Below, one piece after another: positions 1 to 29,522 of a stretch of 32,000 nt of DNA. A program made the position numbers and the translations under genes. The stretch's first letter is position 1. Each line of letters begins with the position of its first letter. The notes below the pieces were generated by a model. It did not search any database and was not told the DNA's origin. It saw only the letters and a list, made by a program, of their open reading frames with translations. The DNA is from Candidatus Woesearchaeota archaeon (GTDB taxonomy: Archaea > Nanobdellota > Nanobdellia > Woesearchaeales > JAWAQC01): contig JBJKRA010000018.1 of assembly GCA_046704905.1 (NCBI GenBank), positions 1 through 32,000 on the forward strand, read 5' to 3'.

Positions 1-1010
1 ACGATGCCGCCGACGATCGCCCCGCCTACGAGACCTGCAACCGTCCCTATGACAGGGATGGTGAATGTCCCTGCCGTCGCTCCTGCCACTGCTGCGGAAG
101 CGACCGAACTCGCTATCGCAACGCCGAAACCGGCCGCAGCCCCTGTTGCAGTGGTCGTTCCTGCGGTCAATGCGAAAGAACCCCCTTCCGTCCTGTCCTT
201 GAAGATGATTGCGTAGGACTGGCCCGGCCTGATCTGGTCGTTCTGCATGTCCGTCGGGAAGTAGAGCAGGCCTCCTCCGTCGTTGATGGTCTGGAGATAG
301 CTCATCATCTGGTCCGTCCTCACGTAGCATTGCTGCTGCCCGAGGCAGCTCCAGTCCGGATAGGCGACCATGTTCGCTGGGACGTTGCTATCGAGCAGGC
401 AGCTGCCGCCGTTCTGCTCGCACTCGGGCATGCCTGAGGTCTTGCATTGGGAGGGATCAGCCTGCTGCTGGGCGGCCGTGCAGTCGATCTTGGGCTGGGT
501 CTTGGCCTTGTAGGGGGTCGTCGCCATGTAGGAGAGGAGATCGGTGAAGTAGAAAGGCTGGAAGTTGGCGTCCTTGCTGTCCGGGATGTTCGCGACGAAG
601 CAGACGAAGCAGTGGTCACTCCCTTTGACGAACACCGAACCGAGGACGTTATGGCTGACCGCGCCGCTGCCGAACTCGTACCAGCAGTCCCCGATGCGGC
701 TCGCGAGGTTCTTCATGACGTCCTTCTGCACGCTGGAATCGGTCGTGAAGCTCTTCTCCGGTACCGTGATGTTGTAGCTGCGCAGATAAAGCTTCGAGCG
801 CAGGAGATTGTATCCCCCGACAGACACCTTGAGGCTCTCCGCCGCGAAGAGCGACGCCCGCGTAAGATCAAGGCCCTGCTCGATCGTGTAGGAGCGGCTG
901 TTCGTGAAGAGCACGGCTGCGAGCAGGAAGAAGCCGACCAGGGTGAGGAGGATCTTTCCCAGGTTCGACATCTCGAACCCGCGTTTCCCCCGCAGGCGGC
1001 GCGCTCTCAT
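1..1010 (-). CDS. Cys-rich membrane protein, 3'-partial (C-terminus runs off the left edge); not in the ORF track because no stop lies in the window
   Basis: Manual reverse-strand translation from ATG 1010..1008 is open to position 1 (about 336 codons) with GC3-rich codons: MRARRLRGKRGFEMSNLGKILLTLVGFFLLAAVLF... It has an N-terminal TM helix, about 10 Cys in the middle (DCWYEF, HCFVCF, IDCTAA, SQCKTSGMPECEQNGGSC, WSCLGQQQCY) and a Gly/Ala/Thr-rich hydrophobic C-terminal region. An alternative start lies at 971. Confidence 0.6.
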   Translation of the reverse strand, partial: MRARRLRGKRGFEMSNLGKILLTLVGFFLLAAVLFTNSRSYTIEQGLDLTRASLFAAESLKVSVGGYNLLRSKLYLRSYNITVPEKSFTTDSSVQKDVMKNLASRIGDCWYEFGSGAVSHNVLGSVFVKGSDHCFVCFVANIPDSKDANFQPFYFTDLLSYMATTPYKAKTQPKIDCTAAQQQADPSQCKTSGMPECEQNGGSCLLDSNVPANMVAYPDWSCLGQQQCYVRTDQMMSYLQTINDGGGLLYFPTDMQNDQIRPGQSYAIIFKDRTEGGSFALTAGTTTATGAAAGFGVAIASSVASAAVAGATAGTFTIPVIGTVAGLVGGAIVGGI

Positions 1011-2353: not shown

Positions 2354-2674
2354 TAGGGCAAGGAGGAGGCTATCGGCGCGCATGCGCTGAGGAAAGTCCA
2401 TCCACCGTCAAAAGGCCGCTGCCGGAAGGCAGGACCCCAACAGGGTCGGCTCCCGCACAGAAACAAAACCCCCTCCCCGGAGGGATGATGAGCGCGACGC
2501 GTCGGCGCGAGCTGACGCAAGACAACCCTCTGACCGCAGAGGGGGAGGGAAGGATGAAACGGCGGCCCCGGCCGGTGCAAGTCCTTTGGGACGCGCAGTC
2601 AAATGCCTCCGCGGCGCATAGGGAAATCTCCGGATTTCCAGTACGCCGACAGAAGGTGGCTTACCCTTGCTCTA
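2354..2674 (+). ncRNA. rnpB: RNase P RNA
   Basis: The universally conserved CR-I GAGGAAAGTCC is at 2389-2399, GCACAGAAAC at 2455-2464, and the CR-V-like GACAGAAGGTGGCTTAC at 2648-2664. P4 can form (AAG[U]CCAUC with GGUGGCUU) and includes the classic bulged U. A 10-bp P1 forms between TAGGGCAAGG (2354-2363) and CCTTGCTCTA (2665-2674). The ends are approximate. Confidence 0.8.
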
Positions 2675-4429: not shown

Positions 4430-5356
4430 TCAGGCCTTCCCGTCGCTGCCCAGCACCTTGATCTTCTCCTTGACGGTCTGGCAGATAATATCCATGACGT
4501 CGGCGAGGATCGCCCGCGGGTCGAAGTCCTTTGGATTGCCCGCCAGGTGCGCCCGTACCCCTGCGTCGAAGGCGATGCGGAGGTCCGTGTCGGTGTTGAC
4601 CTTGCAGATGCCGGCCTTCACCGCCTTCCTCAGGTGATCGAACGACACGCCGTGCGCGTTCGCCAGGTTCGCCCCATACTTCTCCGCCTTCCTGACGAGT
4701 GACTGCGGGACAGAGGATGCGCCATGGAGGACGAGAGGGGTCTTCGGCAGGCTCGCGTCGATCTCCGCGATGCGGCGGAAGTCGAGCCTCGACGCGCCCT
4801 TGAACTTGTAGGCGCCGTGGCTCGTGCCTACGGCCACGGCGAGGGAGTCGCACCTGGTGAGCCTGACGAACGCCACCGCTTCTGTCACGCTGGTGAACAT
4901 CGCGTCCTTCTCGCTGACCTTGATGTTATCCTCGACGCCCTGGAGGCGGCCGATCTCGGCCTCGACGGGGATATGGTGCTTATGGGCGAGATCCACGACG
5001 CTTCTCGTGACCCTGACGTTCTCCTTGAACGGGAGATGGGAGGAGTCGATCATGACCGATGTATAGCCATGCTTTATGCAGGTCCTGGCCCAGGCGAGGC
5101 TCGGGCCGTGGTCCAGATGGAGCGCGACCGGGACCTTGACCTTCTTCGCCATCGTCGAGACCATCGCGTACATCTCCTCGATGCCGGCGTAATTGATAGC
5201 GCTTGTCGAGGTCTGGAGGATCACCGGTGCCTTCAGCTCTTCGGCAGCGCGGAGGATAGCCTTGGTTATCTCGAGGTCGCTCGTGTTGAACGCGCCTATG
5301 GCGTAGCCGCCCTTCTTCGCGGCAAGAAGCATCTGTTTCGTTGACGTGAGCGTCAT
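4430..5356 (-). CDS. fba: Class II (metal-dependent) fructose/tagatose-bisphosphate aldolase
   Basis: Matching segments are GYAIGAFN, PVILQTS, PVALHLDHG, VMIDSSHLPF, EAEIG, AVAVGTSHGAYKF and LVLHGASS. These are the characteristic class II FBA family pattern. GAGGTGATCG lies upstream of the ATG. Confidence 0.85.
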   Translation of the reverse strand: MTLTSTKQMLLAAKKGGYAIGAFNTSDLEITKAILRAAEELKAPVILQTSTSAINYAGIEEMYAMVSTMAKKVKVPVALHLDHGPSLAWARTCIKHGYTSVMIDSSHLPFKENVRVTRSVVDLAHKHHIPVEAEIGRLQGVEDNIKVSEKDAMFTSVTEAVAFVRLTRCDSLAVAVGTSHGAYKFKGASRLDFRRIAEIDASLPKTPLVLHGASSVPQSLVRKAEKYGANLANAHGVSFDHLRKAVKAGICKVNTDTDLRIAFDAGVRAHLAGNPKDFDPRAILADVMDIICQTVKEKIKVLGSDGKA

Positions 5357-9291: not shown

Positions 9292-9669
9292 TCAGAGCAG
9301 GACCGCGTTGACGGTGCCGTCCTGCGCCGGACGTGACGTGACCTTGGCCTTGCCGAGCTCGGTGTCGATCACGGCGCCCAGGTTCACGATGTTTCGGCGC
9401 ACGTAGTTGCGGTTCGCGCTGTTCTCGAGGACCGCCTTGATCTTCGCCTTCTGGTGCTTGCCGGTCTTCCTGTCGAGGACGTTCGCGACAGCCGCGACGA
9501 GCACGCGGCCTTTGGTGTTGCCGCCGAGGGTTTTTACGGCCTTGACCTTGTGCCTGGCGTCGACCTTGGTCAGCGACGCGCCGCTCGCCTTGTCGGCGAG
9601 CCGCTTCTTGCGGAAGTCGTGGTACTTGCCGCCGGAGACTTTCTGGGTGGATCGGAACTGGGAAATCAT
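9292..9669 (-). CDS. rps8e: 30S ribosomal protein S8e
   Basis: 125 aa and basic. SGGKYHDFRKKRL, GGNTKGRVL and the C-terminal pattern are typical of archaeal/eukaryotic S8e. Confidence 0.85.
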   Translation of the reverse strand: MISQFRSTQKVSGGKYHDFRKKRLADKASGASLTKVDARHKVKAVKTLGGNTKGRVLVAAVANVLDRKTGKHQKAKIKAVLENSANRNYVRRNIVNLGAVIDTELGKAKVTSRPAQDGTVNAVLL

Positions 9670-9805: not shown

Positions 9806-10339
9806 ATGATACCCCTCGCAGCGCTCTTCTACCTGTTCCTGCCTGCGGCGTTCGCGAACATGGCGCCGGTGCTGTGCAGAGGGCTCCCCCTGCTCGACGT
9901 GCCGCTCGACGGCGGGCTCAAGATAGGGGGAAGGGCGCTCCTCGGGAAACAGAAGACCGTCAGGGGAGTGGTGGCCGGCATCCTTTTCGCAGTGGCCATG
10001 GCGCTCATCCAGCACCTGCTCCTGGCCGTGCCGTTCTTCTCCGACCTCTCGCTTGTCCCCTACGCCGATTTCATGCTCGTCGGCGTGCTGCTCGGCGGAG
10101 GCGCGATGCTCGGGGACCTCATCGAGAGCGCGATCAAGCGCCGGCTCGGCATCGTGTCGAGCAGGCCATGGATACCTTTCGACCAGATCGACTGGGTCAT
10201 CGGGGCGTTCCTGCTCCTGGAGATCGCCTACCCGCTGCCATGGCTCTCCCTCGTCCCGACGCTCGCGCTCTTCTTCGTCCTGCACATTGCGGTCAAGCAT
10301 GTGGGCTACTGGCTGCACCTGGATACGGCACGCTGGTGA
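9806..10339 (+). CDS. carS: CDP-archaeol synthase (CDP-2,3-bis-O-geranylgeranyl-sn-glycerol synthase)
   Basis: Polytopic, 177 aa. LGKQKTVRG, GAMLGDLIESAIKRRLG, PFDQIDW and the C-terminal H...Y.L.L...W pattern match the CarS (AF1740/DUF46) family. Confidence 0.8.
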   Translation: MIPLAALFYLFLPAAFANMAPVLCRGLPLLDVPLDGGLKIGGRALLGKQKTVRGVVAGILFAVAMALIQHLLLAVPFFSDLSLVPYADFMLVGVLLGGGAMLGDLIESAIKRRLGIVSSRPWIPFDQIDWVIGAFLLLEIAYPLPWLSLVPTLALFFVLHIAVKHVGYWLHLDTARW

Positions 10340-10340
10340 A

Positions 10341-10769
10341 CTACTTCCGGAAGAACGCGTCGACGATTATCCAGACCACGCCTATGACGAGCGCGCTGTC
10401 CGCAAGGTTGAAGATGGGGAAGGAGCCCACACGGATGTAGTCTACGACATGGCCCATGACCAGCCGGTCGAAGAGGTTGGAGAGAGCGCCTGCCGCGACG
10501 AGGCCGTAGGCGTACTGCAGGGGAGTGCAAAATACGCGCTCGCGCACGAACAGGTAGGCGAGGAAGGCGAGGAACGCGACCGTGACCAGGGCGAGGACCG
10601 CCGTCTCGCCGGTGAAGAGGCTGAAGCCCGCACCCGTGTTCGTCGCGAGCTCTATGCCGAGCCAGGGGAGGACCGGAAAGGAGAAGAGCGTGTGCTTGAG
10701 CAGCTGGTCGAGCGCGATGAGCGCGGCGATCTCTGCTATGAGAAGCCAGAGCCCTGTCCTCTTCTCCAT
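10341..10769 (-). CDS. lspA: Lipoprotein signal peptidase (signal peptidase II, peptidase A8)
   Basis: 142 aa with 4 TM segments. ATNTGAGFSLF matches NxGAAFS. GALSNLFDRLVMGHVVDYI and PIFNLADSALVIG match the two catalytic-Asp blocks of bacterial LspA (GNLxDR...VVD, FNxAD). Confidence 0.85.
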   Translation of the reverse strand: MEKRTGLWLLIAEIAALIALDQLLKHTLFSFPVLPWLGIELATNTGAGFSLFTGETAVLALVTVAFLAFLAYLFVRERVFCTPLQYAYGLVAAGALSNLFDRLVMGHVVDYIRVGSFPIFNLADSALVIGVVWIIVDAFFRK

Positions 10770-10771
10770 CG

Positions 10772-11164
10772 CTAGTAGCGCGGGCGGCTCTGCTCCTTCT
10801 CGGCGATGCGCTCGATGTTGGCGATGCGCTGGTTCATGCTGTCGAGCGTGGAACGGAGGGCATCGAGCTTGGCCGAGACCACCTCGATGTCCTTGGAGAT
10901 GAGGTCCTGGCGGCTGCCGTAGCCACCCGACATCTGCGGCTGCTCCTGGACGGTGCCGCGGCGGAGTATCTGGGAAGCGCTGACAGGATCGTCGAGCGGA
11001 TGCTGCTCCGGCTGGCGGCCGAACGGGCCCTGGTCCGCGTCCCCACCTATCTCGAAATTCTCCTGGAGGCTGTCCTTGCCCAGGTCAGCGAACGCGTCCT
11101 TGTTCAGCGGAGCGCCGAAACTATCGTCCTTCTTCCAGAATTTGAGCCTGTCCATGACGCCCAT
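10772..11164 (-). CDS. Hypothetical protein with a C-terminal coiled coil; 2-nt gap to lspA (same operon)
   Basis: Track ORF of 130 aa (MGVMDRLKFWKKDD...). A CAGGTGATC SD and a TTTTTTAAAC TATA-like box lie upstream. No family recognised. Confidence 0.55.
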   Translation of the reverse strand: MGVMDRLKFWKKDDSFGAPLNKDAFADLGKDSLQENFEIGGDADQGPFGRQPEQHPLDDPVSASQILRRGTVQEQPQMSGGYGSRQDLISKDIEVVSAKLDALRSTLDSMNQRIANIERIAEKEQSRPRY

Positions 11165-11236
11165 GCACGATCACCTGTCATTGCCATGGGCATCGTCAGT
11201 TTAAAAAACTTGTCATTTGTCAGAGAGATGCAGAGC

Positions 11237-11723: not shown

Positions 11724-13424
11724 CTACTGCTTCGAGATATCGGGGACCTGCATGACAGGGAAGACCCTGATCTTGTAGACATCGTCTCCGTCAAGCGCCA
11801 GGTAGAGAATCTGCGGCTCTACGGCATCGAGCGGTGAGGGCGCGATGGGGAAGAGGAGACCGCTTCGCGCCTCCGCAAGCCTGCGGTTGAGACTGCGATC
11901 CCTGGAGCGCCTGGTACGGTATTTCCTCTCCAGCGCTTTGATGCTCCTCTCCAGATGGCCGACTATCTCCTCCCGGAGATCCTCTATCATCTGATAGCCT
12001 TCCGGCGTGTACCAACTGTAGCGCAGGCGTCGATAGGCGTCCTCCCGCTTCTCGGAGAGCTTGCCGAGCAGAGCCATCATCTCGGCACCGCTCGCGGAGA
12101 GCTCTTTTTCGTAGGCCGCGATCTGCGCGGTGAGCGTGTTCTTTTCCTTCTCGAGCGTCGTCTTCCCTTTCCGTAAGGCATTGTAGCGACGGACGATAGG
12201 CTTCTTGTTGTAGTTCGTCAGTGCCTTCTTCCGCTGCTCCATCCCGTAGCTCTCCTCGACGAGAGCCCTTGCGATATGTCCGGCGTCGGCGCCGACGGCC
12301 CTTTCCTGCTCCTCCAGGAGGCGCTTCACCTTCCTCTTCTGCCTGTCGTAGGCCTCGAACAGCGTCAGACGTGTCTCCTCCACCTCTGCAAAGCGCTTGT
12401 CCTCCTGGTACTTCCTCAGCCGGTCCTCAATCCCGTCGCGTTTGGTCACGGTCCTGACGAGAGTCTTCTGCAGCCTGTCGTAGGAGAGATGTATCCTGTC
12501 GTAGGCCTCTTTGAGGTTCGTGATATAGCGATCCAGAAGATTGCTGTACCCGTACCTGGCCAGTTCCGAAGGGGTCATCCCCTTTATGGCGCGCAGCTCC
12601 TCGCGAAGGTCCGACAGGTCAGGCGCAGAGGTGGTAACCTCTTTTAGGGGATGGTACTCGAACTGCACGTTGGCCACCCCGTCCTGGTGGAAGCCTGCGA
12701 TGCCGAGCACCGCCACAGGGAAATAGCCTTTCGTCTCTATGAGGTTCTTGATATGGCCCAGCTCCGCATAGTAGGTGTTCCTGGAGATATGCTCAATCGT
12801 GTGGGGCGCATCGATCGTCACCGGCGAGGCCGTGTCCGGATCGAGCCAGAGCGCATCCTTGTCGAAGAGCAGCCCGCCGGTCGCCCCTTTCCTGGCAAGG
12901 TAGGACGATACCATGTCCTCGAGCCCCGGATGCCTCTTCATCTGGAAAGGCTTCATGGAGAGATAGGCGCCGTCGGCGACCATGAGGGGAAGGCCGCTCC
13001 CATGCCGCAGGTCGTCGAGGATCTCGAAGAGAAGCCTGGAATGTGCTATGAGATAGGAGAGGTTGATCGCGCTCGGCTGGCTCGGAGCGAACGAGGAGTC
13101 CACAGAAGCGGTGGACTTCATATCCATGGGCATGGCGACCAGCGCCTCACCCGTATGCTGGACAAGTATCAGGTCGGGGATGGCCACCCACCGGTCATGG
13201 CCGTCGGCAAGGCCCTCCGCGGAGAAGATACGGCCGTACCTGTCCCTGAGCATGTCTACAGGGATGATGGTCGTGCCCTTCCCCTCACCCTCGTGGGAAA
13301 GGATGACGAAGTCCTCCGCACCGTAGAATATGGGATAGAGGGACGAGACGCCTGCTTCGAAGAGCGCTTTCACATGATCCTTCTCGGAGCCTCTTATCTT
13401 CGCCTCGGGCCCGAGCATGCTCAT
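11724..13424 (-). CDS. Hypothetical 566-aa protein: N-terminal globular region with a possible PD-(D/E)xK motif, plus a long Arg/Lys/Glu-rich coiled-coil C-terminal half
   Basis: The start is set at MSMLGPE (ATG 13424), which forms an ATGA overlap with the upstream DHH gene stop (13421-13424). The candidate motif is WVAIPDLILVQ...ALVAMPMDMKS. The C-terminal roughly 230 aa are heptad-like and charged. Confidence 0.65.
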   Translation of the reverse strand: MSMLGPEAKIRGSEKDHVKALFEAGVSSLYPIFYGAEDFVILSHEGEGKGTTIIPVDMLRDRYGRIFSAEGLADGHDRWVAIPDLILVQHTGEALVAMPMDMKSTASVDSSFAPSQPSAINLSYLIAHSRLLFEILDDLRHGSGLPLMVADGAYLSMKPFQMKRHPGLEDMVSSYLARKGATGGLLFDKDALWLDPDTASPVTIDAPHTIEHISRNTYYAELGHIKNLIETKGYFPVAVLGIAGFHQDGVANVQFEYHPLKEVTTSAPDLSDLREELRAIKGMTPSELARYGYSNLLDRYITNLKEAYDRIHLSYDRLQKTLVRTVTKRDGIEDRLRKYQEDKRFAEVEETRLTLFEAYDRQKRKVKRLLEEQERAVGADAGHIARALVEESYGMEQRKKALTNYNKKPIVRRYNALRKGKTTLEKEKNTLTAQIAAYEKELSASGAEMMALLGKLSEKREDAYRRLRYSWYTPEGYQMIEDLREEIVGHLERSIKALERKYRTRRSRDRSLNRRLAEARSGLLFPIAPSPLDAVEPQILYLALDGDDVYKIRVFPVMQVPDISKQ

Positions 13425-15403
13425 CGGTGCACCAGCTCCCGGTCGAATTCGTACTCCTTGACAGCGTCGAAGAACTCGGGTACCATGTCCTCCTCGAGAT
13501 AGCACGACGACGCCGTCGGATGTCCGCCGCCGCTCTCCACGATGCCGGCCTCTTTCATGTCTGAAAAGAACTCCCCGAGATGTATGCTCTCGCCGTAGGC
13601 GAGGTTGGCCCTTCCCGATATCTTCCTCTGATGGCCATAGGCAGGGGCGCCGGTGAAGAGGATGCCGTGGCGTCCGGGGAGCATGCCGACGTTCGCGACG
13701 ATGCCGCCGAAGACGCCGGTGAAGGGGAGGATGCTCGGGACCTTGAGCTCATCGGCGAGCGTGTCGAGCGGGAGGTAATGCATCGTCTTCGTGATATGAC
13801 GCATCATGCCCTTGTCGAAGATCATCTCCTCGACCATGCCCATGCCCTGAGAGATCGTATGCCGGTATTCGAGATGGATCTCCTTGAGCCGGGAGAAGAT
13901 GTCCTCACGATCCTGCCACTTGCCGAAACCCTCTTTTTCAAGCGCGGCGATCTCTGTCCTGGTCAAGGGGAGATCGAGATCAAGCGCGACCGCCGCGTTG
14001 AACAACGGGCCATGGCCGAGCTTGGATGTCGAGGTCATGAGGTTCGCGATCTCGGCTATCGAGAGGCCGGAAAAGACCCTCGACCCCTCCCATGCGATCA
14101 CGTACTGGCCCTTATGCAGCTGCGATAGGTAGCTTTCCCTGAATACAGGCTCGGAGAATGCGACGACGCTATTGACGTACTTGGCGAGAAGCCTGCCTCT
14201 CTGGTCGTCGGTGAGCTCGCTCATCCGGCTGTCCGGGTCGATGCCGATCGAACGGAGGAAGATGTTGGCCTTGGCCGTGCGGTCGCTTCCGCGGTGGTAA
14301 TCGTCGGTATAGTCGTCGAACACGACAGGCATGACGCCGCCGTCAGGATCGGTGAGGTAGCGGCCATCCCTGCTGTCCATAATGAGCGTCCTGTCGAGCG
14401 CGTCCTGGCTGACGGCGTTGAGCTTTCCGACCTCGTCTCCGGTGAGGTAGTCGAGATACTGCTGGTTCGTACCGGCCTTGTTGCCCGGGCCGACGGCAAG
14501 GAGGAACTTGAGCTGGCGGTAGTGCTTGTCGAGCCAACCGGAGATATTCTTTTCGTACACTCCGCCGAGCGCCTTCGCCGCTTCGGGGAAGGTCGGCGGC
14601 CGGTACTTGAGGTTGAAGGGGATGTCGCTCTCCGCCACTGCCTTCTGCAGGGGCTTTAAGAAATAGCCGTAGAGGGGACTGTCGACCCAAGAGATCATGT
14701 GCTTACGTTCGAGGTAATGGTAGAGCGCGGCGTTCGCTCCGGCGACGGACTGCTGGTCTGCCGCAGAGCCCGCGATGCCGATGACCGTCGAGTAGGTGAG
14801 GCGCTCCTCGAGACGCTTACGCTGCTTCTCGGTCGAGGGGTCGCCGGCATACATCTTGAGCAGCCTATCGCCGACAGCGTTGAAGAGGAAGGCGGTCGCA
14901 GCGCCAGCCGAGAGCTCTTTCCCCCCGTCGATGCCATGCGCGTTCGGGTTGAGATAGAAGACGCCGGAAGGCGAAGGGCGCGGCTGATGATGGTCCAGCA
15001 CGACGGTGCCTTCCGGATACAGTCCGGGAAGGTCCATGGGATCGAGGCTTCCGAGGTCGGAAAAGAGGAAATGCCCTTCCCCCCCTTCCGAAAGACGTGC
15101 GTGGATGCTCTCCAGGCTGGCCTTCGCGCCAGGATCGGTCTCTATGCCCATGACGCGCTCGGAGTCCACTTTTACGCCGTTGTTCCCGACCATGTCCGCG
15201 AGGGAGCGCATGCCGATGGTCGCGCCCGTCTCGCCGGAAAGGCCGTCGGCGTCGGCGAGATGGGAGACGGCAAAGAAGTATCGCTCAGGCCCATAGTTGA
15301 AGAGGATCTCCAGGAGGCGGTCCGCAACAGCATCTTGCAGAACATTGTACTCGTCATAGCCCTCCCCTTCGGGAAGCGGTGTGTCTATGCCCTTTCCTCC
15401 CAT
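13421..15403 (-). CDS. DHH/DHHA1-family phosphoesterase (RecJ/Cdc45-like) with a large central insertion
   Basis: The DHH motifs are SHLADADGLSG (DxD), FSDLGS, VLDHHQP (DHH) and the DHHA1 GGGHPTASS. At 660 aa it is longer than typical family members. Confidence 0.75.
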   Translation of the reverse strand: MGGKGIDTPLPEGEGYDEYNVLQDAVADRLLEILFNYGPERYFFAVSHLADADGLSGETGATIGMRSLADMVGNNGVKVDSERVMGIETDPGAKASLESIHARLSEGGEGHFLFSDLGSLDPMDLPGLYPEGTVVLDHHQPRPSPSGVFYLNPNAHGIDGGKELSAGAATAFLFNAVGDRLLKMYAGDPSTEKQRKRLEERLTYSTVIGIAGSAADQQSVAGANAALYHYLERKHMISWVDSPLYGYFLKPLQKAVAESDIPFNLKYRPPTFPEAAKALGGVYEKNISGWLDKHYRQLKFLLAVGPGNKAGTNQQYLDYLTGDEVGKLNAVSQDALDRTLIMDSRDGRYLTDPDGGVMPVVFDDYTDDYHRGSDRTAKANIFLRSIGIDPDSRMSELTDDQRGRLLAKYVNSVVAFSEPVFRESYLSQLHKGQYVIAWEGSRVFSGLSIAEIANLMTSTSKLGHGPLFNAAVALDLDLPLTRTEIAALEKEGFGKWQDREDIFSRLKEIHLEYRHTISQGMGMVEEMIFDKGMMRHITKTMHYLPLDTLADELKVPSILPFTGVFGGIVANVGMLPGRHGILFTGAPAYGHQRKISGRANLAYGESIHLGEFFSDMKEAGIVESGGGHPTASSCYLEEDMVPEFFDAVKEYEFDRELVHR

Positions 15404-15537: not shown

Positions 15538-16284
15538 TCATAAGCCGGTCGGATCGTCGAAGAAGGAGACCGCTACGCCGAACTTCCTCTTCAGGTGCGC
15601 GCCCAGGGCCTGGACGCCGAAGACCTCGGTCGCGTAATGGCCTGCGCAGACGAGGTTGAAGGAGAGGTCCCTGGCCGTGACCGCAGCGGTGTGCGAGGTC
15701 TCGCCGGTAAGCAGGGTATCGTAGCCTTTGGCTTTCGCCTCGGCAAGGAAGGACGCCCCGCCTCCGGAGACGATGGCGACCTTCTTTACCGGATGGGGAA
15801 GGTAAGCGTAAGGGGCTTTCGCGATGCGCTTTTCGACCAGCGAAAGGAAGGCATCAGGTTTCAAGGCTTTAGGCAGCGTTCCGGCAAGCCCCCAGGAGAG
15901 ACCCCTGTCCTCGCCGAAAGGCGCCACGCCCTTGAGGCCGAGCAGCCTCGTCATCACCGCGTTGTTCCCGACGACGGGATGCGCGTCCAGGGGAGCGTGC
16001 GCGGCGTAGAGGCCGATCCCGCTGTCGAGGAGGACCTTGAGGATCGCGTAGTTCCTGCCGGTGAGGTAGGCGAGGGAGTCCCGGAAGCTTATGCCGTGGT
16101 GGACGAGGAGGAGGTCGGCCTTCGCATCGGCGGCATGCTTTGCAGCGGCGACAGTAGCGTCGACCGCCGTGACGATCCGTCTTACAGGACGCCGCGCCTC
16201 GACCTGCAGGCCGTTGTGCGAGGGGTCGGCGAGGAAAGCGGAGAGACGGAGATACGCGTCCAGATAGCCGGCAATCCCTCTCAT
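15538..16284 (-). CDS. NIF3/YbgI family protein (GTP cyclohydrolase 1 type 2 homolog)
   Basis: NGLQV, LLLVHHG, LYAAHAPLD and CAGHYATE are NIF3 family hallmarks. The start is set at MRGIAGYL (ATG 16284), which forms an ATGA overlap with the GT2 stop. Confidence 0.8.
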   Translation of the reverse strand: MRGIAGYLDAYLRLSAFLADPSHNGLQVEARRPVRRIVTAVDATVAAAKHAADAKADLLLVHHGISFRDSLAYLTGRNYAILKVLLDSGIGLYAAHAPLDAHPVVGNNAVMTRLLGLKGVAPFGEDRGLSWGLAGTLPKALKPDAFLSLVEKRIAKAPYAYLPHPVKKVAIVSGGGASFLAEAKAKGYDTLLTGETSHTAAVTARDLSFNLVCAGHYATEVFGVQALGAHLKRKFGVAVSFFDDPTGL

Positions 16285-16946
16285 CGGAATTTCCATACGA
16301 CCATGTCGAAGACGATCTTCATCCCGTCGGTGATGGTCGTCCCCTTATAGCGGTCGTTGTAGATGGTCTCGATGGGGAGGACTGCATACCTGAGCCGGTG
16401 CCTGCCAACGTTCGCGATGATCTCGGACTCCACGCTGTAGTCGGTCGCATCCCATCGGATCTTAGGGTAGGCGGACGCGAGGAACGCGCGGTAGCCCGAC
16501 TGGCTGTCCGGTATCCTCACTCCGTAGAGGACGCGGATGGCGAGATTGAGGACGGCGTTGCCTACGCGGAAGAGGAGGGGCATGCGCCTGTCGAGGCGCC
16601 GGCAGCCGAAGACGATGTCGGCATCGGACAGCTTCCCGAGCATGCGGGGGATGTCCTCAGGCCGGTGCTGCAGGTCTGCGTCGAGGAAGACGATGCGCCC
16701 TGCCTTGAGCTCGTTGACCGCGAACTCCGTGCCGGTCTTGAGCGCCGCGCCCTTGCCCATGTTGATGACATGGGAGAGCAGGCGGATCTCGGGGTGGCGC
16801 CGCATGACCTCCTCCACCACCTCTTTCGTGCGGTCGCTCGAGCCGTCGTTCACGACGACGACAGAGGAGCAGTACTGCAGGGCCCCCAGGAGCACCTTCC
16901 TTATCGTGTACTCCTCATTGTACGCAGGCACCACCACGACATCCAT
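16281..16946 (-). CDS. GT2-family glycosyltransferase (dolichyl-phosphate hexose synthase-like)
   Basis: MDVVVVPAYNEE, VVVNDGSSD, FLDADLQH (the DxD region) and PDSQSGYRAF are typical GT-A GT2 features. The start is set at ATG 16946, 14 nt after the aglB stop and behind a GGTGAAGG SD. The track ORF's N-terminal 148 aa overlap aglB out of frame. Confidence 0.85.
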   Translation of the reverse strand: MDVVVVPAYNEEYTIRKVLLGALQYCSSVVVVNDGSSDRTKEVVEEVMRRHPEIRLLSHVINMGKGAALKTGTEFAVNELKAGRIVFLDADLQHRPEDIPRMLGKLSDADIVFGCRRLDRRMPLLFRVGNAVLNLAIRVLYGVRIPDSQSGYRAFLASAYPKIRWDATDYSVESEIIANVGRHRLRYAVLPIETIYNDRYKGTTITDGMKIVFDMVVWKFR

Positions 16947-16960
16947 GCCGCCTTCACCAT

Positions 16961-19819
16961 TCAATGGTCCCACCAGGAGAGGGTCTCGTTCCAGTCCAGC
17001 TTGTAGAGGTAGATGTTCGTGCCGTCCACTGCCGTCGTGTGCTTGAGCAGCTTGAAGTACTTGAGGCCCGCGCCCTGGAAGAAGAACATCCTGGTGAAGA
17101 TGGAGTCCGCGAGGTCCGGATCGGACATCTGCAGCATGTAGCTGCCCTGGTCCTGGTAGAGGATCGCACCGGTCGCCGGCGTGAGGAGACGCGAGGCCAT
17201 GACCTTCTTCTCGACGGTACCGTTCTTTTCGTAGGTGAAGACCTGCGGATAGAGCATGCCGTTCGTCGTCAGGGCGTACGCGGTCATGGTGGTCATGTTC
17301 ACGAGGATGCCGTTGCTGCAGGTGAGCAGGTCCCCTGACCCGGTGCAGCTCGCCGGCGAGCCCAGGTAGCCCGGCCATGGCGCTATCCACTGGTCGCCGG
17401 AGGTGTTCTTTATCGCGTCATAGGTGGTCTCGGCGTCAGGCAGGGTGTAGTTGTACTGCTGCATGAGGATGTTGACGCCTACCTGCTTGTTCGCGCTGTT
17501 GTCGACCTTGTTGTAGATGTCCGCCCGCGTGAAGTTCCAGATGCCGAAGTGCGCCCATACCGGAGCCTTGCCTATCATGTCCTGCGACGCTATGAAGAAC
17601 TGGTCGTAGAGGTCCGTGCAGTGCGTGTAGTTGAGCACCTGGTCAGCCGTGGCCTTCGATATGTTGTCTGCGGCAAGGGTCGCTGCGGCCTGCGAGCGCG
17701 ACTGGTAGATGATCTTCTGCACGATTGTGACCGCCCTGTAGCTGTTGTTGTTCGTCGCGTTGTAGAGCACGTTGTAGGCCTGGTTCTGCCCGCAGTTGAG
17801 CATCCGCAGGATGTCGACGGCCTTGGTCTCGTTGTTCGTGAGGAGCACTTCCCCTACCCAGTGTATGCGGTTGCCCTGGTCGCCTCCGTCGAAGGTGACG
17901 GACTTCCCTGTCATGGAGTAGAACCAGTGGCCGAAGTCCCACCACGAGGTGATGATCGCGTTGTTCGGATCCGCCTTGATGACGCTGAGCGTATTGTACC
18001 ATGCGTCGTTGAAGCTCGGGACGAGGTTCGTCGCCTGGTTCCAGCCCTGCACCATGGGCGCGGGCACGTAGAGGATGAGGAAGAGCAGCACGATCACCCC
18101 GGCGATCTTGAGGAGACGCGGATCGATGTTGAGCGGGCCTCCGAGCATGCCTGAGAGCTCGAGCAGCTTCTCTGCCGCGATGCCGATCGCCATCGCCACG
18201 TAGAGGATGTGGAGCGCGGTGAAGCGTGTCCCGTTCATCGCGGCATACAGGGTGCCTGCGAAGAAGATGGTGATGAGGAGCGGGAAGAAGAGGTCGGCAT
18301 GGTAGTCCTTGCGTATGTAGGTGAGGACGAACGCCGCGAGCAGCGGGAGCATCAGCAGGAAGAGGTAGACGAACGTGCTCCCGAGTACCATGTGCTGGAC
18401 GCCTGCGATGAGGCCGTTCGTCGACTTCGTCATGGTGAAGAAGAGGAGGATGCCGTACCACGCCGCGACGATGCCGGCGAACCAGTACTCTATCCTCGTC
18501 GCCTCCTTCTTGAAGGTGAGGTAGCTCGCGGCAATCCCCAGGAAGGCGAAGAGGTAGAGCAGCGTCCCGCCGCTGGCCGCGACGACGCTCGCGACGTTTC
18601 CTGTCCCGAGCTCGGCGACCGTGGTCAGGACGTTCGGCCAGATGGTGGTCACGCCGACCGCCTGGTACTGGATGAACCAGAAGGGTGCGACGTAGGAGGC
18701 GAAATAGTCCTTGAGCACACCGAAGGCAGTCTGGTCGGGGATGAGGAACCCGATGAACGCGATGAAGACGACGCTCGAGAGGAAGTAGGAGCCGAGCACC
18801 GAGAGGACATGACGCATGTCCTTTCCTGCGAAGAACCCTTCCATCTTCTTATGCAGGGCGAAATGGCGCACGGCCAGGTAGACGACATAGCCCAGGATCG
18901 CCCCGATGATGAAGAGGTTGGTGTACCAGAACCCTGTCCAGAGGAACATGTAGACCGCTATCGAAAGACCGGAGAGGGCCGCATAGAGCTTCGTCTTCCA
19001 GGGGCTATCGGCATGCCATGCCTCGACGAGCAGCCAGAGGATGAGCAGGGGCATGATGAAGTTGTACTGGTCGTTGTCGTAGAAGCCCGCAGAGGTACGG
19101 AAGATCACGGACTGTGCGACGGCGAGGAGCATGGCGGCGGTAAAGCCGCCGAGGCTTCCGCCCGAGAGCCTCCTGCCCAGGAAGAAGGCAGGGATCATGG
19201 CGAGCATGGAGAGGATCGCAGGGTAGAAGAACATCGAGCGCATCAGCGGCGTGCCGGGGTAGAAGAGGTTGACGAGCTTGTCCCACTCTGCGGCGATGAA
19301 GGGGATGAGGCGGAAGCCGGCAGACTGCCCCAAGCGGCCATTGCGCTGTGTGACATAGGGCTGCCCGTTGATGATCTTGTCGCCGGCGGTCCCCGTCTTG
19401 AGATAGTTCTGGGCGTAGTAGTACTGGAGATAGGGGTCGATGCCGAGCAGGTAGGTGGTATTGTCGGGGCCCTTGTAGTGCGACTTGAGGCTGTCGGCGA
19501 CCGTCGCGATCTCGCTGTCGATCTGGGCCTTGTTCTGCGAGACGTACTGCTGCAGCTGCTGGTTGACGAGGCTCGTCTGCTGCGCGGCGGGGAGATAGGC
19601 GTACTTCTGGGCCACCTGCTGCTGGAGCTGGGACTGGTAGAAGCCGAGCACCTGCTTGGTCGCATAGGTGTTCATGGCAGGCAGGTTGTTCGCCTGCACA
19701 CGGTACTGGTACGCTACGGTCATGACGCTGAGTATGAGCAGCGCGATCAGGATGCCCTTGACGAGCGGTTTCTTGCATGTGCCGTAGATCTTGTCCATGT
19801 CCATGACGGTCAGCCTCAT
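16961..19819 (-). CDS. aglB: Archaeal oligosaccharyltransferase AglB (STT3 family)
   Basis: 952 aa and multi-TM. The SWWDFGHW motif corresponds to WWDYG, and GIDPYLQYYY to the first-loop acidic motif. The start ATG overlaps the rnz stop (ATGA at 19816-19819). Confidence 0.9.
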   Translation of the reverse strand: MRLTVMDMDKIYGTCKKPLVKGILIALLILSVMTVAYQYRVQANNLPAMNTYATKQVLGFYQSQLQQQVAQKYAYLPAAQQTSLVNQQLQQYVSQNKAQIDSEIATVADSLKSHYKGPDNTTYLLGIDPYLQYYYAQNYLKTGTAGDKIINGQPYVTQRNGRLGQSAGFRLIPFIAAEWDKLVNLFYPGTPLMRSMFFYPAILSMLAMIPAFFLGRRLSGGSLGGFTAAMLLAVAQSVIFRTSAGFYDNDQYNFIMPLLILWLLVEAWHADSPWKTKLYAALSGLSIAVYMFLWTGFWYTNLFIIGAILGYVVYLAVRHFALHKKMEGFFAGKDMRHVLSVLGSYFLSSVVFIAFIGFLIPDQTAFGVLKDYFASYVAPFWFIQYQAVGVTTIWPNVLTTVAELGTGNVASVVAASGGTLLYLFAFLGIAASYLTFKKEATRIEYWFAGIVAAWYGILLFFTMTKSTNGLIAGVQHMVLGSTFVYLFLLMLPLLAAFVLTYIRKDYHADLFFPLLITIFFAGTLYAAMNGTRFTALHILYVAMAIGIAAEKLLELSGMLGGPLNIDPRLLKIAGVIVLLFLILYVPAPMVQGWNQATNLVPSFNDAWYNTLSVIKADPNNAIITSWWDFGHWFYSMTGKSVTFDGGDQGNRIHWVGEVLLTNNETKAVDILRMLNCGQNQAYNVLYNATNNNSYRAVTIVQKIIYQSRSQAAATLAADNISKATADQVLNYTHCTDLYDQFFIASQDMIGKAPVWAHFGIWNFTRADIYNKVDNSANKQVGVNILMQQYNYTLPDAETTYDAIKNTSGDQWIAPWPGYLGSPASCTGSGDLLTCSNGILVNMTTMTAYALTTNGMLYPQVFTYEKNGTVEKKVMASRLLTPATGAILYQDQGSYMLQMSDPDLADSIFTRMFFFQGAGLKYFKLLKHTTAVDGTNIYLYKLDWNETLSWWDH

Positions 19820-20706
19820 ACCTTGAGTCTCATGAAATCGTACGCAGCGATCGTTTCAGGGAAGATGCCCCGCGCCTCGGCGACCAGCGCGTCGACCTCC
19901 TTGTAGCGCGAGGAGAAGTGGGTCAGCACGAGGCGCCTCGCGCCGGCCTCTGCCGCCGCACGGGCGGCCTGCGATGCTGTCAGGTGCTGGTGCTCTGCTG
20001 CCTTGTCCTCCAGATCCCCCCCATAGGTCGATTCGCAGACGAGGAGGTCAACGTCCTTGCCCACCTTTAATAAGTTTTGTGAAATCGCGGTATCGGCGAT
20101 GATGCCGAGTCGCCTGCCCGGGACGACCTTCGAGACCTCGTCAGGGAGGACCTTCCTCTTCTTGTGCGTGACGGGCTTCCCCCGCTGCAGCAGCCCTATC
20201 GCCTCGCCTGCGATGCCGAGCTTCCTGACCGCAGCGGCGTCGATCTTACGCCTGTCCTGCTCCTTCACCAGGAAACCGTAGGAGTCGATCCCATGCACTA
20301 GGAGATACGCCGAGACGGCGATATCCTCCTTCCTCAACACCGGCCCGTCCTTCTCGATCTCCTTGATCTCGAGAGCTATCTCCTTATCGAAGATGTAGGC
20401 GTCGAAGAGGTGGCCGAGGCGCTCCTTCGTCCCCTTCGGGCCGATGATGTGGAGCCTGCCCTGGTAGCCCTGCGCGGCCATGGTCTGGATGAGACCGGGA
20501 AGGCCGAGCACGTGGTCGCCGTGCCAGTGCGAGATGAAGACTGCGGCGATCTTCTGCAGGCGGAGATTTGCGATGCGCAGCTGGCGCTGGGTGCCCTCGC
20601 CGCAGTCGAAGAGGAAGGCGAACCTGCCGAAGTCCACATGCAATGCCGTGTGGTTGCGGTCCCTTGTCGGGACCATAGAGGAGGTGCCTAGGAAGGTGAG
20701 CTCCAT
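19816..20706 (-). CDS. rnz: Ribonuclease Z (tRNA 3' endonuclease, metallo-beta-lactamase fold)
   Basis: MELTFLGTSS, FDCGEGTQ, ISHWHGDH (HxHxDH) and LTHFSSRY are present. The start is set at ATG 20706, with GGAGGT beginning 14 nt upstream of the ATG (8-nt spacer between motif and ATG). Confidence 0.85.
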   Translation of the reverse strand: MELTFLGTSSMVPTRDRNHTALHVDFGRFAFLFDCGEGTQRQLRIANLRLQKIAAVFISHWHGDHVLGLPGLIQTMAAQGYQGRLHIIGPKGTKERLGHLFDAYIFDKEIALEIKEIEKDGPVLRKEDIAVSAYLLVHGIDSYGFLVKEQDRRKIDAAAVRKLGIAGEAIGLLQRGKPVTHKKRKVLPDEVSKVVPGRRLGIIADTAISQNLLKVGKDVDLLVCESTYGGDLEDKAAEHQHLTASQAARAAAEAGARRLVLTHFSSRYKEVDALVAEARGIFPETIAAYDFMRLKV

Positions 20707-20711
20707 CCGCC

Positions 20712-20981
20712 CTACCTCCACTGCGCATGGCCGAAATGGACGAGCAGGTCGAAGTTGAGCCTCTCCAGGCCAAGGGGCATGTCGCAGGAACCGTAGTCCG
20801 TGTTGAGCCAGACGTAGAAGAGGGTGTCTGGGAAGCGCTCCCTGAGGGGCGCAAGGATCCTCGATGAGCTGTACTTGAAGCCGTCCGGCAGCTGGAGGAG
20901 GACGCGTCTGGGCCTCTCCTCCCCTATCTGGGCGATGAGGCCAGACAGGTCCAGATCGTAGTTGTCTATGGTGACTTCCAT
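20712..20981 (-). CDS. dph2: Dph2-like N-terminal fragment of about 89 aa (diphthamide synthase remnant or split piece; possibly a pseudogene)
   Basis: RRVLLQLPDGFKYSS...TDYGSCDMP...FDLLVHFGHA aligns with the first roughly 85 aa of archaeal Dph2 (RVLIQSPEGL...NYGACD...DALIHLGHS). The ORF ends there (TAG 20712-20714), 5 nt before rnz. Confidence 0.55.
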   Translation of the reverse strand: MEVTIDNYDLDLSGLIAQIGEERPRRVLLQLPDGFKYSSSRILAPLRERFPDTLFYVWLNTDYGSCDMPLGLERLNFDLLVHFGHAQWR

Positions 20982-21113
20982 CTTCCCCCTATAAAAGAGC
21001 AATCGCGGGGGCTATAAAAAGCTTGTTGTTTTTGGTTCCTGTCCAATATAAAAGGGAGGCGCCAGGGCAGGAGCCGATGTACGCCCTTCTTCCAACGAAG
21101 TCCCTGACGCCGT

Positions 21114-22334
21114 CTAGATGATAGAGTAGAAGCCTGCAGCCGCCTTGAAATAGGTTTTCCCCTTCCCGAGGACTTTCCCGATGATGGCCTCCACGCTGTC
21201 GAGCTGGTGGGCCCGGGAGAGATGCCTGGACACGTAAGCTTCAGCCCGGTCCGTCATCCTGCCGAGCGCGTCCGGAGACATGGAAAGGATTTCCATAGTC
21301 TTTCCAGCAAGGTCTCCGATGTTTCCCATCGAGAAGGTGAACCCGTATTTCCCCTGCGCCGTCTGCTCCAGCCCTGCGGGCATGTCGGAGATGAGGAGGG
21401 GAAGACCGATGGCCTGCGCTTCGGCCCCCACCCGTGGATAGCCTTCCGATTCCGATGCTAGGACGAAGAGGTCGCTTATGAGCATATGCTTGGGCATTTC
21501 GCTATAAGGCACTTTGCCCGGTACCCTGAAATGGGATGCGTATGGCGATTGGCCAATCGTCTCCTTAAGGAGCGCCGTTTCAGGACCCTCACCTACTATC
21601 AGGTAGAAGACATTGGGCATCTCAGCGATCACATGCTCTGCCGATGCGGCGATATCCGTTACCCTCTTGACCGGATAATGGTTGGACGCGTGCATGACAA
21701 CTTTTGCATCTGCAGGTATTTCGAGCCCGGCGCGCAGCGTCGAGAGCTCTTCCTGGCTGTACGAAGTGTTGAACAAGGAAAAATCCACACCGTTGTAGAC
21801 AGTCGTTATATCGCTTTTCGGTATTCCATACGCGATCATGAGCTGCCGAAAATGCTCGGCTACTACGATGACGTGATCCGCGTCCCGGATATTATCCAGG
21901 AATTCGACAGTCTTTTCCGGAGTGAAGATGCCCTGGGCAAGCGCTCTCGTAGGCGTCCCATGGAGATACTGTATCGTCGGGAGGTCCAGTCCCCTGGCTG
22001 CCATGCGATACCATGACCAGGAATCGTGCCCGAGGATGACGGCATCGGGTCTGTTCCTCTCCAGCTGTTCTGCGACGAAAGCGTTAACAGTGGCTGTCTG
22101 CTCCGGGGCTGGGGGTATTCCTCCATAACCGAAGGTGTAGGGAACACGGGTTACCGGTATCCCCATATCCTTTTCTGATATGAGGTCATATTCCTTATCC
22201 CCGTCGTAGGGCTGGGAGATGACGATTACCTCATGCCCCCTTCGTTTGAGGCCAGAAGCGAGTTCCGCGTTGGCGAACTCTGAACCCCCCAGCGAGGGGA
22301 GATATGAAGTGAGGAAAGCAATCTTCTCCGCCAT
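21114..22334 (-). CDS. GT4-family glycosyltransferase
   Basis: The N-terminus LTSYLPSLGGSEFANAELASGLKRRGHEV and the C-terminal ASESEGYPRVGAEAQAIGLPLLISD (E-x7-E region) fit GT4. The start is set at MAEKIAFL, because the TATA-like GTCTTATATGG lies about 27 nt upstream of ATG 22334. Confidence 0.8.
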   Translation of the reverse strand: MAEKIAFLTSYLPSLGGSEFANAELASGLKRRGHEVIVISQPYDGDKEYDLISEKDMGIPVTRVPYTFGYGGIPPAPEQTATVNAFVAEQLERNRPDAVILGHDSWSWYRMAARGLDLPTIQYLHGTPTRALAQGIFTPEKTVEFLDNIRDADHVIVVAEHFRQLMIAYGIPKSDITTVYNGVDFSLFNTSYSQEELSTLRAGLEIPADAKVVMHASNHYPVKRVTDIAASAEHVIAEMPNVFYLIVGEGPETALLKETIGQSPYASHFRVPGKVPYSEMPKHMLISDLFVLASESEGYPRVGAEAQAIGLPLLISDMPAGLEQTAQGKYGFTFSMGNIGDLAGKTMEILSMSPDALGRMTDRAEAYVSRHLSRAHQLDSVEAIIGKVLGKGKTYFKAAAGFYSII

Positions 22335-22457
22335 GGAAAAGGACATCGGCGCAGGCCATATAAGACGTGGCATATCCTTTTTTGTAGTTCTTTCGCAGAG
22401 GCTATGAGGAAGGAAAAATAGATAAGGTCCCGGACGTGTCCCCTATCCGCACATACG

Positions 22458-24929: not shown

Positions 24930-26147
24930 ATGAAAAAGAAAGGCCAGGAAACAGGAAGTTCTGCTGCGATACTTTTGGCGCTCCTCGGGCTGTTCGTGCT
25001 CCTCTACCTCCTCTTCGTGCCTCCCGGCGTGCGGGAGAGCCTCCTCAACGGGAACATCACCTATGCGAACGAGACCACGACGTACAAGGCCTCCTACGTC
25101 CTCCTGATGGACGAACGCCCCGGACTCCTCAACTACATCAACCTGCCCATCTGCCAGAACAAGGAGTGCGACCACGACCTGCCATCGTTCTCGCTGCTGC
25201 GCACGACTGCGTCGCAGCAGATAGCCTCGTTCAACCCCTTCATTGTCAAGAACAACATCTTCACCAAGGAGGACAAGACCCTCACCTTCTCGGTGAACGA
25301 CCTCCAGGACACGAGCAACCTCCTGCTGACGTTCGGCGCGAACGAGCATTCCGGGACGCTGACGGTCATGCTCAACGGGCACGACATCTACCAGAAGGCG
25401 ATGGACACCTACAACGTCGAGCCCATCACGATCCCAAAGACCATCCTCGCGATGACGAACACCCTGACCTTCTCCGTATCGGGTGTGGGCGCGCAGTTCT
25501 GGAAGACGAACGCCTACGGCATCGAGAACGCCAAGATCGTCGGGGACGTGACGGACACGACCAAGCAGCAGAGCGCGACAACGTTCTTCATCTCGAGCGA
25601 CGAGATCGATGCCATGCAGAGCGCGGACCTACGGTTCTTCCCCGACTGCAAGGCCTCGCAGGTCGGACCGCTGTCCATCACCCTCAACGCGAGAAGCATC
25701 TACCAGGGGGTGCCTGACTGCGGCATGATCAACGTCGTGCAGCTCTCGAACAACGCGCTCGCTACAGGGGACAACAGCCTATCGTTCCAGACCGCATCCG
25801 GCACATACCTCATCGACAGCATCAGCGTGCAGACGCACCTCAAGGACATCAACTATCCTGTCTACTACTTCGACCTCTCTGACCAGCAGTACCAGGACCT
25901 CATGCAGAACAGGACGGACCTCAACCTCACGCTCGATTTCGCGAAACGGCTCAACCAGTCCTATGACGTCTTCTACAACCTCAACGGCTACAAGCGCTCG
26001 GTGCAGGTGGACCAGGGCATCAGCGAGGTGCAGAGCAAGCTCCTCAACGTCGCCCTGAAGAAGAAGAACAACTGGATCTCCTTCGAGCCGGACGGGCAGC
26101 CTGTCACGATCGCAGAGATGAAGATAGAGATCAAGCCGCGCGGTTGA
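24930..26147 (+). CDS. Surface protein A: N-terminal anchor or signal (MKKKGQETGSS plus a hydrophobic helix) followed by three tandem beta-rich repeats of about 90 aa
   Basis: Track ORF of 405 aa. The repeats lie at about aa 117-206, 217-302 and 311-401 and share F.(V/I/L)S..., L.(V/I).LN(G/A)..(I)Y and a terminal (I/V).(V/I) pattern. There are 4 Cys and 5 N-x-S/T sequons. Confidence 0.8.
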   Translation: MKKKGQETGSSAAILLALLGLFVLLYLLFVPPGVRESLLNGNITYANETTTYKASYVLLMDERPGLLNYINLPICQNKECDHDLPSFSLLRTTASQQIASFNPFIVKNNIFTKEDKTLTFSVNDLQDTSNLLLTFGANEHSGTLTVMLNGHDIYQKAMDTYNVEPITIPKTILAMTNTLTFSVSGVGAQFWKTNAYGIENAKIVGDVTDTTKQQSATTFFISSDEIDAMQSADLRFFPDCKASQVGPLSITLNARSIYQGVPDCGMINVVQLSNNALATGDNSLSFQTASGTYLIDSISVQTHLKDINYPVYYFDLSDQQYQDLMQNRTDLNLTLDFAKRLNQSYDVFYNLNGYKRSVQVDQGISEVQSKLLNVALKKKNNWISFEPDGQPVTIAEMKIEIKPRG

Positions 26148-26172
26148 ACCGCTCCCGGGAAGTGCACCAGCG

Positions 26173-28475: not shown

Positions 28476-28502
28476 TGGCAGCAGAAACGCCGAAAAAAAG
28501 AA

Positions 28503-28513
28503 AGATTTATAAT
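28503..28513 (+). promoter_or_regulatory. TATA-like box (AGATTTATAAT) in the C-D intergenic gap, followed by an AAGGAG SD at 28540-28545
   Basis: It has the same AAGATTTATA core as the boxes upstream of gene A and rps8e, and lies 43 nt upstream of ATG 28556. Confidence 0.3.
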
Positions 28514-28555
28514 GCACTCTCTCCCAAAGCACCCCCTATAAGGAGCATGCTACCC

Positions 28556-29503: not shown

Positions 29504-29522
29504 AAACCAGGAAGGTGATACC

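Follow-up and report, generated by a model that had tools for sequence, protein, structure and literature searches.

Lipoprotein signal peptidase (LspA, or SPase II; peptidase family A8) normally requires a lipid-modified cysteine in its substrate, and hence a prior lipidating enzyme (Lgt or an equivalent). In the enzyme of Staphylococcus aureus, 14 residues are highly conserved, comprising the catalytic dyad (D118 and D136) together with D21, K25, N52, G54, G102, N106, D109, R110, V116, F132, N133, and A135; bacterial LspA has been modelled with the acyl chains of the diacylglyceryl group beneath the beta-cradle (PMC6952399). For archaea, the lipidation step is represented by AliA and AliB of Haloferax volcanii (arCOG02177 and arCOG02178), which are not A8 peptidases; the archaeal lipoprotein signal peptidase of this pathway is still to be identified, and the papers concerned, dating from 2025 and 2026, state that archaea have no reported Lsp homolog (PMC12462473, PMC13631571). 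The preliminary description of the locus studied here, according to which archaea are regarded as lacking an LspA homolog, is therefore accurate with respect to the recent lipoprotein literature. Lipobox proteins are prevalent in DPANN archaea, where AliA is present with gaps (PMC12462473). Furthermore, DPANN genomes hold many bacterial genes, which in Woesearchaeota include a bacterial G3P dehydrogenase and fatty-acid genes (Castelle et al., 2021; PMC8204110). The main text of that catalog mentions neither LspA nor lipoprotein processing, and a second DPANN comparative-genomics paper is likewise silent on LspA. Full-text literature searches returned no other paper in which DPANN archaea are connected with a lipoprotein signal peptidase, nor any that connects Woesearchaeota with signal peptidase II or archaea with Peptidase_A8.

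The DNA analyzed here (the window) is a stretch of 32,000 nucleotides from a Candidatus Woesearchaeota archaeon, and it encodes a protein of family A8 (Table 1). The protein matches Pfam PF01252 (Peptidase_A8) with 100.4 bits (E 1.3e-28; gathering threshold 25) over profile positions 2-142 of 142, as well as the NCBIfam lspA equivalog TIGR00077 with 86.7 bits (curated cutoff 73.95). A sequence search of the PDB retrieved LspA chains only (6ryo at 3e-17; 9emz and 5dir at ~4e-14). Both Asp motifs align to these chains, with D110 (in VVDY) and D124 (in NLAD) aligned to the catalytic dyad in 6ryo and in the 9emz/5dir chains. We take the dyad of Pseudomonas aeruginosa LspA to be D124/D143, which fits the alignment to 9emz_A, where D143 is the last aligned residue.

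All 14 of the conserved S. aureus residues map one-to-one on the window LspA (D21, K25, N44, G46, G94, N98, D101, R102, V108, D110, F120, N121, A123, and D124), and the spacing inside each block is identical; the motifs NTGAGFS, GALSNLFDR, VVDY, and FNLADS start at residues 44, 94, 108, and 120, respectively. D110 and D124 are invariant in an alignment of 82 LspA sequences and in a second alignment of 164. In the former, 13 positions are invariant (12 of the 14, plus G106), with G46 and R102 nearly so; in the latter, nine landmark positions are invariant or nearly invariant, and every archaeal copy keeps nine of nine. Judged by its sequence, the ORF is a genuine, intact LspA. The preliminary description had recognized an LspA homolog from its two A8 Asp blocks and its NxGAxFS block, and Pfam, TIGR00077, and the motif positions all agree; it had also pointed to the possible loss of the catalytic Asp residues on careful alignment, which both of them survive together with the other 12 conserved residues. 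The coordinates it gave, and the gaps of 1 nt to carS and 2 nt to the upstream gene, proved correct in a base-by-base check of the junctions.

The window LspA resembles the bacterial enzymes (MEROPS A8; S. aureus 6RYO/6RYP and P. aeruginosa 5DIR) in family, in the 14 residues, and in predicted fold. An AlphaFold2 model built on an LspA alignment (pLDDT 93.8, pTM 0.86) has helices at residues 2-27, 56-77, 83-105, and 122-140, plus strands, and the protein is accordingly predicted to consist of four transmembrane (TM) helices and a beta-cradle. When this model was compared with the PDB using Foldseek, the significant matches were LspA structures only (TM 0.71-0.82), the best being 6ryp (TM 0.82, rmsd 2.1 A), and the next match had an E of about 2. 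The window protein differs from bacterial LspA in its archaeal host, in its length (142 aa vs. about 160-170), and in its sequence, which is at most 45% identical to any bacterial sequence. It is a trimmed LspA in which the predicted beta-cradle and extracellular loop are shortened: the segment from TM1 to the NxG motif comprises 23 residues vs. 30-31 in most of the 164 aligned sequences, and the Asp-to-Asp loop comprises 14 residues vs. 18 in S. aureus. A TM1-NxG segment as short as this (22-23 residues) is seldom seen, and is common to the window LspA and the archaeal locus L087. A regular-expression search had suggested the 14-residue Asp-Asp spacing as an archaeal synapomorphy; this was rejected, as 75 of 158 non-archaeal sequences share it in the full alignment.

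Table 1. Positions, strands, and characteristics of features in the 32-kb window.
Feature	Position	Strand	Characteristics
Archaeal-type RNase P RNA	2354-2674	+	RF00373, 159 bits, full length
rps8e	9292-9669	-	Synteny anchor, outside the partner-lspA module
carS	9806-10339	+	CDP-archaeol synthase; convergent with lspA; stop TGA 10337-10339; 1-nt gap
lspA	10341-10769	-	Family-A8 lipoprotein signal peptidase (SPase II), 142 aa; start ATG 10767-10769; stop TAG 10341-10343
Partner gene	10772-11164	-	130-aa soluble protein; stop TAG 10772-10774
Intergenic region upstream of partner	11165-11236	-	72 nt; TATA-like TTTTTTAAA; GGTGAT Shine-Dalgarno-like motif
Lipobox protein C	27552-28475	+	307 aa; signal peptide MKAAALLPLIAALLLISG, then C
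Lipobox protein D	28556-29503	+	315 aa; signal peptide MKKLVFLLVAALLIAG, then C; alternative start 28547
Lipobox protein E	29523-30452	+	309 aa; signal peptide MRKTFVLLLVLSLAFIAG, then C

In addition to an archaeal-type RNase P RNA and rps8e (Table 1), the window encodes tRNA-His, DUF2000, TruD, a class II aldolase, NIF3, AglB/STT3, tRNase Z, and GatE. GC content is flat, at 0.58-0.63 across the window and 0.61 around lspA. A 4-kb contig from the Logan assembly of SRR31309759 has the same gene order as the window (DUF2000, the small protein, lspA, and carS).

Several other features of this contig were observed. The fructose-bisphosphate aldolase is of class II (bacterial type; 4430-5356, minus strand, 333 bits), and is probably another bacterial-type gene in this archaeal genome. 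A minus-strand N-glycosylation block (16281-22373) includes AglB/STT3 (16961-19819), a GT2 (16281-17390), and a GT4 (21114-22373), and a tRNase Z-like metallo-beta-lactamase gene (19816-20721) sits inside it. GatE is apparently split between two minus-strand ORFs (30471-30986 and 31011-31970) that lie 24 nt apart, with the GatB_N and GAD catalytic part and a weak GatB_Yqey tail domain in separate adjacent ORFs; a real gene split, a frameshift, or a fault in the assembly could each be the cause. Two further minus-strand ORFs, 11724-13505 and 13421-15403, overlap by 85 nt when counted from their most upstream start codons, and the true start of the former may be later than listed. The latter (660 aa) has weak similarity to archaeal RecJ and DHHA1; the former (593 aa) matches no family, and its C-terminal half looks Lys/Glu-rich and coiled-coil-like by eye.

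Immediately upstream of lspA is a gene (hereafter the partner), the stop codon of which is separated from the lspA ATG by 2 nt (CG). The encoded protein matches no Pfam or NCBIfam family. Its N-terminal KFWKxxD motif is followed by ~70 residues of disordered linker and then by a coiled-coil helix at the C-terminus; AlphaFold predicts helices at residues 4-14 and 84-125, a disordered linker, and no TM segment. The 42-residue C-terminal helix agrees with the small coiled-coil protein that the preliminary description had placed here. Across the partner family, KFW is invariant (KFWKxxD in most members), the middle is of low complexity, and the C-terminus forms a heptad helix (KLDxL...NQRLxNxE). 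The 72-nt region upstream of the partner is likely the promoter of the partner-lspA pair, as suggested by its sequence motifs, and lspA is probably co-transcribed and translationally coupled with the coiled-coil gene.

Six further archaeal loci encode a short LspA (141-148 aa) behind a partner homolog, usually near rps8e. Such short archaeal LspAs occur between rps8e, LSM, and rpl37e (P0003), near a 114-aa aIF-1A and SepF (P0011), and near HhH-GPD (P0006), as well as in L153, L176, and L179. The partner homolog is upstream of lspA and on the same strand in L085, L087, L093, L153, L176, and L179, and is directly upstream in all of these except L153, where a 292-aa opposite-strand gene (L153 1132-2010, minus strand) lies in between; thus, partner and lspA can be separated without loss of either. 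Elsewhere, the arrangement ranges from a 14-nt overlap (L087) or a 1-nt overlap in which stop and start share a base (L093), through spacings of 12 nt (L179) and 36 nt (L176), to about 150 nt (L085). The distance from rps8e to the pair is 0.1-4 kb in the window, L087, L176, and L179.

A partner HMM was run on all ORFs of 176 sequences (175 loci and the window), and it matched in archaeal lspA loci only, with no matches in ~155 bacterial-looking lspA loci. A database search with the partner alignment yielded a family of 197 members, in which every organism-named protein belongs to Candidatus Woesearchaeota or Nanoarchaeia; a precomputed Pfam entry was attached to one of 120 listed members (P0343, PF17253). 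When loci were sampled from the partner side, lspA was directly downstream in two of four (L176 and L179) and not in the other two (L177 and L178). The genes beside the partner in L177 and L178 were considered as divergent LspAs and rejected, Pfam and hhalign both being negative. Because the partner also occurs without lspA, it is a wider Woesearchaeal gene; conserved synteny, co-transcription, or function may account for the linkage of the partner to lspA. A 358-aa protein (P0347) was considered as a partner-LspA fusion and rejected; it is a tandem LspA-LspA protein, with two complete LspA domains and both Asp motifs in each.

The gene converging on lspA in the window is carS, and the preliminary description had suspected this adjacency to be coincidental; it is indeed absent from every other locus examined. 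The closest named relative of the window carS is from a Nanoarchaeia MAG (44% identity; L088), the locus of which has no lspA. A carS-lspA link was rejected, as the convergent 153-aa ORF in the equivalent place in L088 has no A8 similarity. In the other lspA loci, a different convergent gene, encoding a membrane protein, takes the place of carS; in L085 (6466-7017, minus strand) and L153 (2514-3038, minus strand) this protein ends in a long Lys-rich tail. Separately, a CarS-like gene with 43% identity to the window carS was seen at L091 8001-8555 (plus strand) in a clearly bacterial, Patescibacteria-like context, beside bacterial L10 and L7/L12 genes and followed by a CDP-alcohol phosphatidyltransferase; this is an indication that genes have been shared between CPR bacteria and DPANN archaea.

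The archaeal LspA copies are 35-54% identical to each other, and the nearest homologs of the window LspA have about 45% identity to it. The retention of the nine landmark residues at this level of divergence implies purifying selection. Ribosomal protein S8e provides a measure against which the divergence of LspA can be set: identities among the archaeal lspA genomes range overall from 44 to 67% for S8e, with the window at 48-51% to L087, L176, and L179; the corresponding LspA identities of the window are 37-46%. L176 and L179 are the closest pair for S8e (67%), for LspA (54%), and for the partner (57%). Because the divergence of LspA tracks that of S8e, lspA is apparently an old resident of a Woesearchaeota-like DPANN lineage, transmitted vertically. 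The archaeal lspA loci span a GC content from 0.30 to 0.61. At 90% identity, the window LspA and each of the five neighbors checked form singletons, and the lineage is therefore poorly sampled.

A profile built from four archaeal LspA sequences was searched with HMMER against 1.84 billion cluster representatives and gave 144 matches at E <= 1e-30, mostly of 136-150 aa. Two of the 20 top hits looked up were organism-named, both as signal peptidase II of a Candidatus Woesearchaeota archaeon (MBN2457879.1 and MFH1511492.1). Like the window protein, these are short archaeal A8 proteins, and they are among the best hits to the archaeal profile; they carry automated annotation only, and no publication discussing either was found. 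Archaeal LspA is recognized by NCBI automated annotation and is absent from scientific discussion. With a four-sequence archaeal profile, the held-out L176 and L179 ranked first and second of 161 non-training sequences, ~10 bits above the best sequence from a bacterial locus; the held-out L153 ranked 29th of all 165. A Woesearchaeota LspA with a tail of ~80 residues made of KEKDKIKG repeats was also observed (P0349), and Lys-rich C-terminal tails recur in the lineage.

The best 80 loci listed in a scan of GTDB species representatives were all bacterial, the matches listed in a metagenome scan were mostly bacterial LspA loci, and a scan of viral contigs gave no confirmed LspA match. In bacterial loci, lspA adjoins rluD and dnaE (P0004) or forms an ileS-lspA operon (P0009). 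Neither the ileS-lspA nor the lspA-rluD synteny is present in the window, where the gene instead follows the archaeal coiled-coil gene near rps8e. L098, a high-ranking locus without the partner, was considered as a further archaeal lineage and rejected, as it is a bacterial lspA-rluD locus. The nearest bacterial sequences are Chloroflexus-like, with ~45% identity to the window LspA, similar to its nearest archaeal relative. An ultimately bacterial origin of the archaeal lspA is plausible.

A neighbor-joining tree covering the LspA sequences of all fetched loci (164 sequences, 154 columns, distances of ~1 substitution per site) recovered archaeal monophyly in 0 of 200 bootstraps and a grouping of the window with L087 in 9 of 200. 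This tree settles neither single vs. multiple origin, nor the donor, nor the direction and age of transfer; because it gives no archaeal clade, a single origin rests on synteny and on the profile test. The preliminary description had offered either horizontal acquisition or an overlooked archaeal SPII route. The reading of a genuine archaeal LspA is supported, with the refinement that the gene characterizes Woesearchaeota-like DPANN archaea, being neither a single case nor a route common to archaea at large.

As in bacteria with LspA, canonical lipobox proteins are encoded in the genome of the window. In a rule-based scan, the window yielded three lipobox genes (with four start variants), against zero for a composition-matched reversed sequence; this bears out the three lipobox proteins of the preliminary description. 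Their N-termini are MKAAALLPLIAALLLISGC (27552), MKKLVFLLVAALLIAGC (28556), and MRKTFVLLLVLSLAFIAGC (29523). The lipoboxes, LISG-C, LIAG-C, and FIAG-C, are described by the canonical pattern of I/L at -3, S/A at -2, G at -1, and C at +1. Proteins C, D, and E match no known family; they are full-length paralogs with 25-28% identity and seven Cys each, and the signal peptide of D has a weak match to LPAM_1. All three are plausible candidate substrates of LspA. The same scan detected no lipobox genes in the other fetched archaeal lspA loci (~75 kb). Among the proteins of the 32-kb window, there was no match to Lgt (PF01790) or similar. The paralogs follow two other genes in a cluster of five genes on one strand (24930-30452, plus strand) for unannotated surface proteins without any Pfam or NCBIfam family: gene A (24930-26147), the product of which starts with MKKKGQETGSS and a hydrophobic stretch, reminiscent of a class III (pilin-type) signal peptide, and gene B (26173-27555), with an internal hydrophobic segment.

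A canonical pathway can be proposed for these proteins. A prolipoprotein would be exported by Sec and then lipidated at its lipobox cysteine; archaeal LspA would bind it in the membrane, as bacterial LspA does, and would use D110 and D124 to cut the bond joining Gly(-1) to the lipid-modified Cys(+1), leaving a mature lipoprotein that stays anchored via its lipid. The process in common with AliA and AliB of H. volcanii would be the maturation of lipobox proteins in archaea, with the difference that the window protein is an A8 peptidase. Given its residues and modelled fold, we infer with good confidence that the protein is a functional A8 SPase II, long-standing in a Woesearchaeota-related DPANN lineage, for which canonical cleavage of lipidated lipobox proteins is the most likely activity. 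It is more tentatively suggested, as a possibility to which we give slightly less than even weight, that the lipobox proteins of Woesearchaeota-like DPANN archaea are matured by this bacterial-type LspA, acting on a Cys that carries an archaeol thioether or mixed lipids, possibly with the help of a cytoplasmic partner.

Other explanations for the locus were weighed against this one. That LspA is overwhelmingly bacterial, with bacteria accounting for all of the best 80 listed GTDB loci and for all partner-less loci inspected for context, might suggest bacterial contamination, or a chimeric assembly, at lspA within an archaeal contig, a possibility that the preliminary description had itself raised. 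However, lspA has archaeal neighbors on either side, only 1 and 2 nt away, and the archaeal markers, the flat GC content, and the Logan contig with identical gene order make contamination or chimerism very unlikely, to the point of being negligible; furthermore, in six other archaeal contigs, drawn from different samples, a short lspA follows the same archaeal partner gene. There is also a slight probability that lspA was acquired from bacteria recently and sporadically, and is neutral or decaying with no integrated role. This would suit the richness of DPANN genomes in bacterial genes (PMC8204110), as well as the Chloroflexus-like sequences that, in a tree without resolution, are about as close (45%) as the nearest archaeal relative. 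Against it, the gene is syntenic in genomes in which S8e is only 44-67% identical, with LspA divergence tracking that of S8e; it is fully ameliorated across the GC range of these genomes; and all functional residues are intact in the window LspA, as are the nine landmarks in all archaeal copies.

A repurposed enzyme, namely an active intramembrane aspartic protease of the A8 fold that serves non-lipoprotein substrates or a partner-dependent process, is unlikely but less readily set aside. Its tight linkage to a coiled-coil partner that was never beside lspA in the bacterial-looking loci fetched would be consistent with such a role, as would the shortened substrate-side loops, the lack of a lipidation enzyme nearby in the 32-kb window, and the lack of lipobox genes in the other archaeal lspA loci fetched. 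Nevertheless, the window LspA keeps all 14 residues lining the pocket in which bacterial LspA binds substrate and globomycin, the genome also encodes canonical lipobox proteins, and the occurrence of the partner without lspA suggests conserved synteny over an obligate complex. Cleavage of lipidated lipobox proteins by a functional SPase II remains the preferred interpretation; weighing against it are the lack of an Lgt match in the 32-kb window, the shortened beta-cradle and extracellular loop, and the lack of lipobox genes in the other archaeal loci fetched (~75 kb).

Which enzyme takes the signal peptide off archaeal lipoproteins is a recognized gap in the field. The lspA gene is lacking in haloarchaea and in most other archaea, so that archaeal lipoprotein processing in general stays unexplained; lspA is a lineage-restricted feature, in which a known enzyme family is found in an unexpected domain. 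It can be compared with the other bacterial machinery that is likewise kept in Woesearchaeota and Pacearchaeota genomes (PMC8204110). At least one large DPANN lineage is an exception to the statement that there is no archaeal Lsp homolog. The presence of this enzyme raises the question of whether an A8 peptidase recognizes a cysteine modified with isoprenoid ethers, or whether these archaea lipidate their proteins with bacterial-type lipids, a question that ties in with the bacterial lipid genes reported in Woesearchaeota. The window LspA, which is small and well modelled, is an experimentally tractable candidate. If the proposed function is correct, it would be the first sequence-identifiable archaeal lipoprotein signal peptidase, and it would mean that A8 peptidases are able to function in archaeal membranes.
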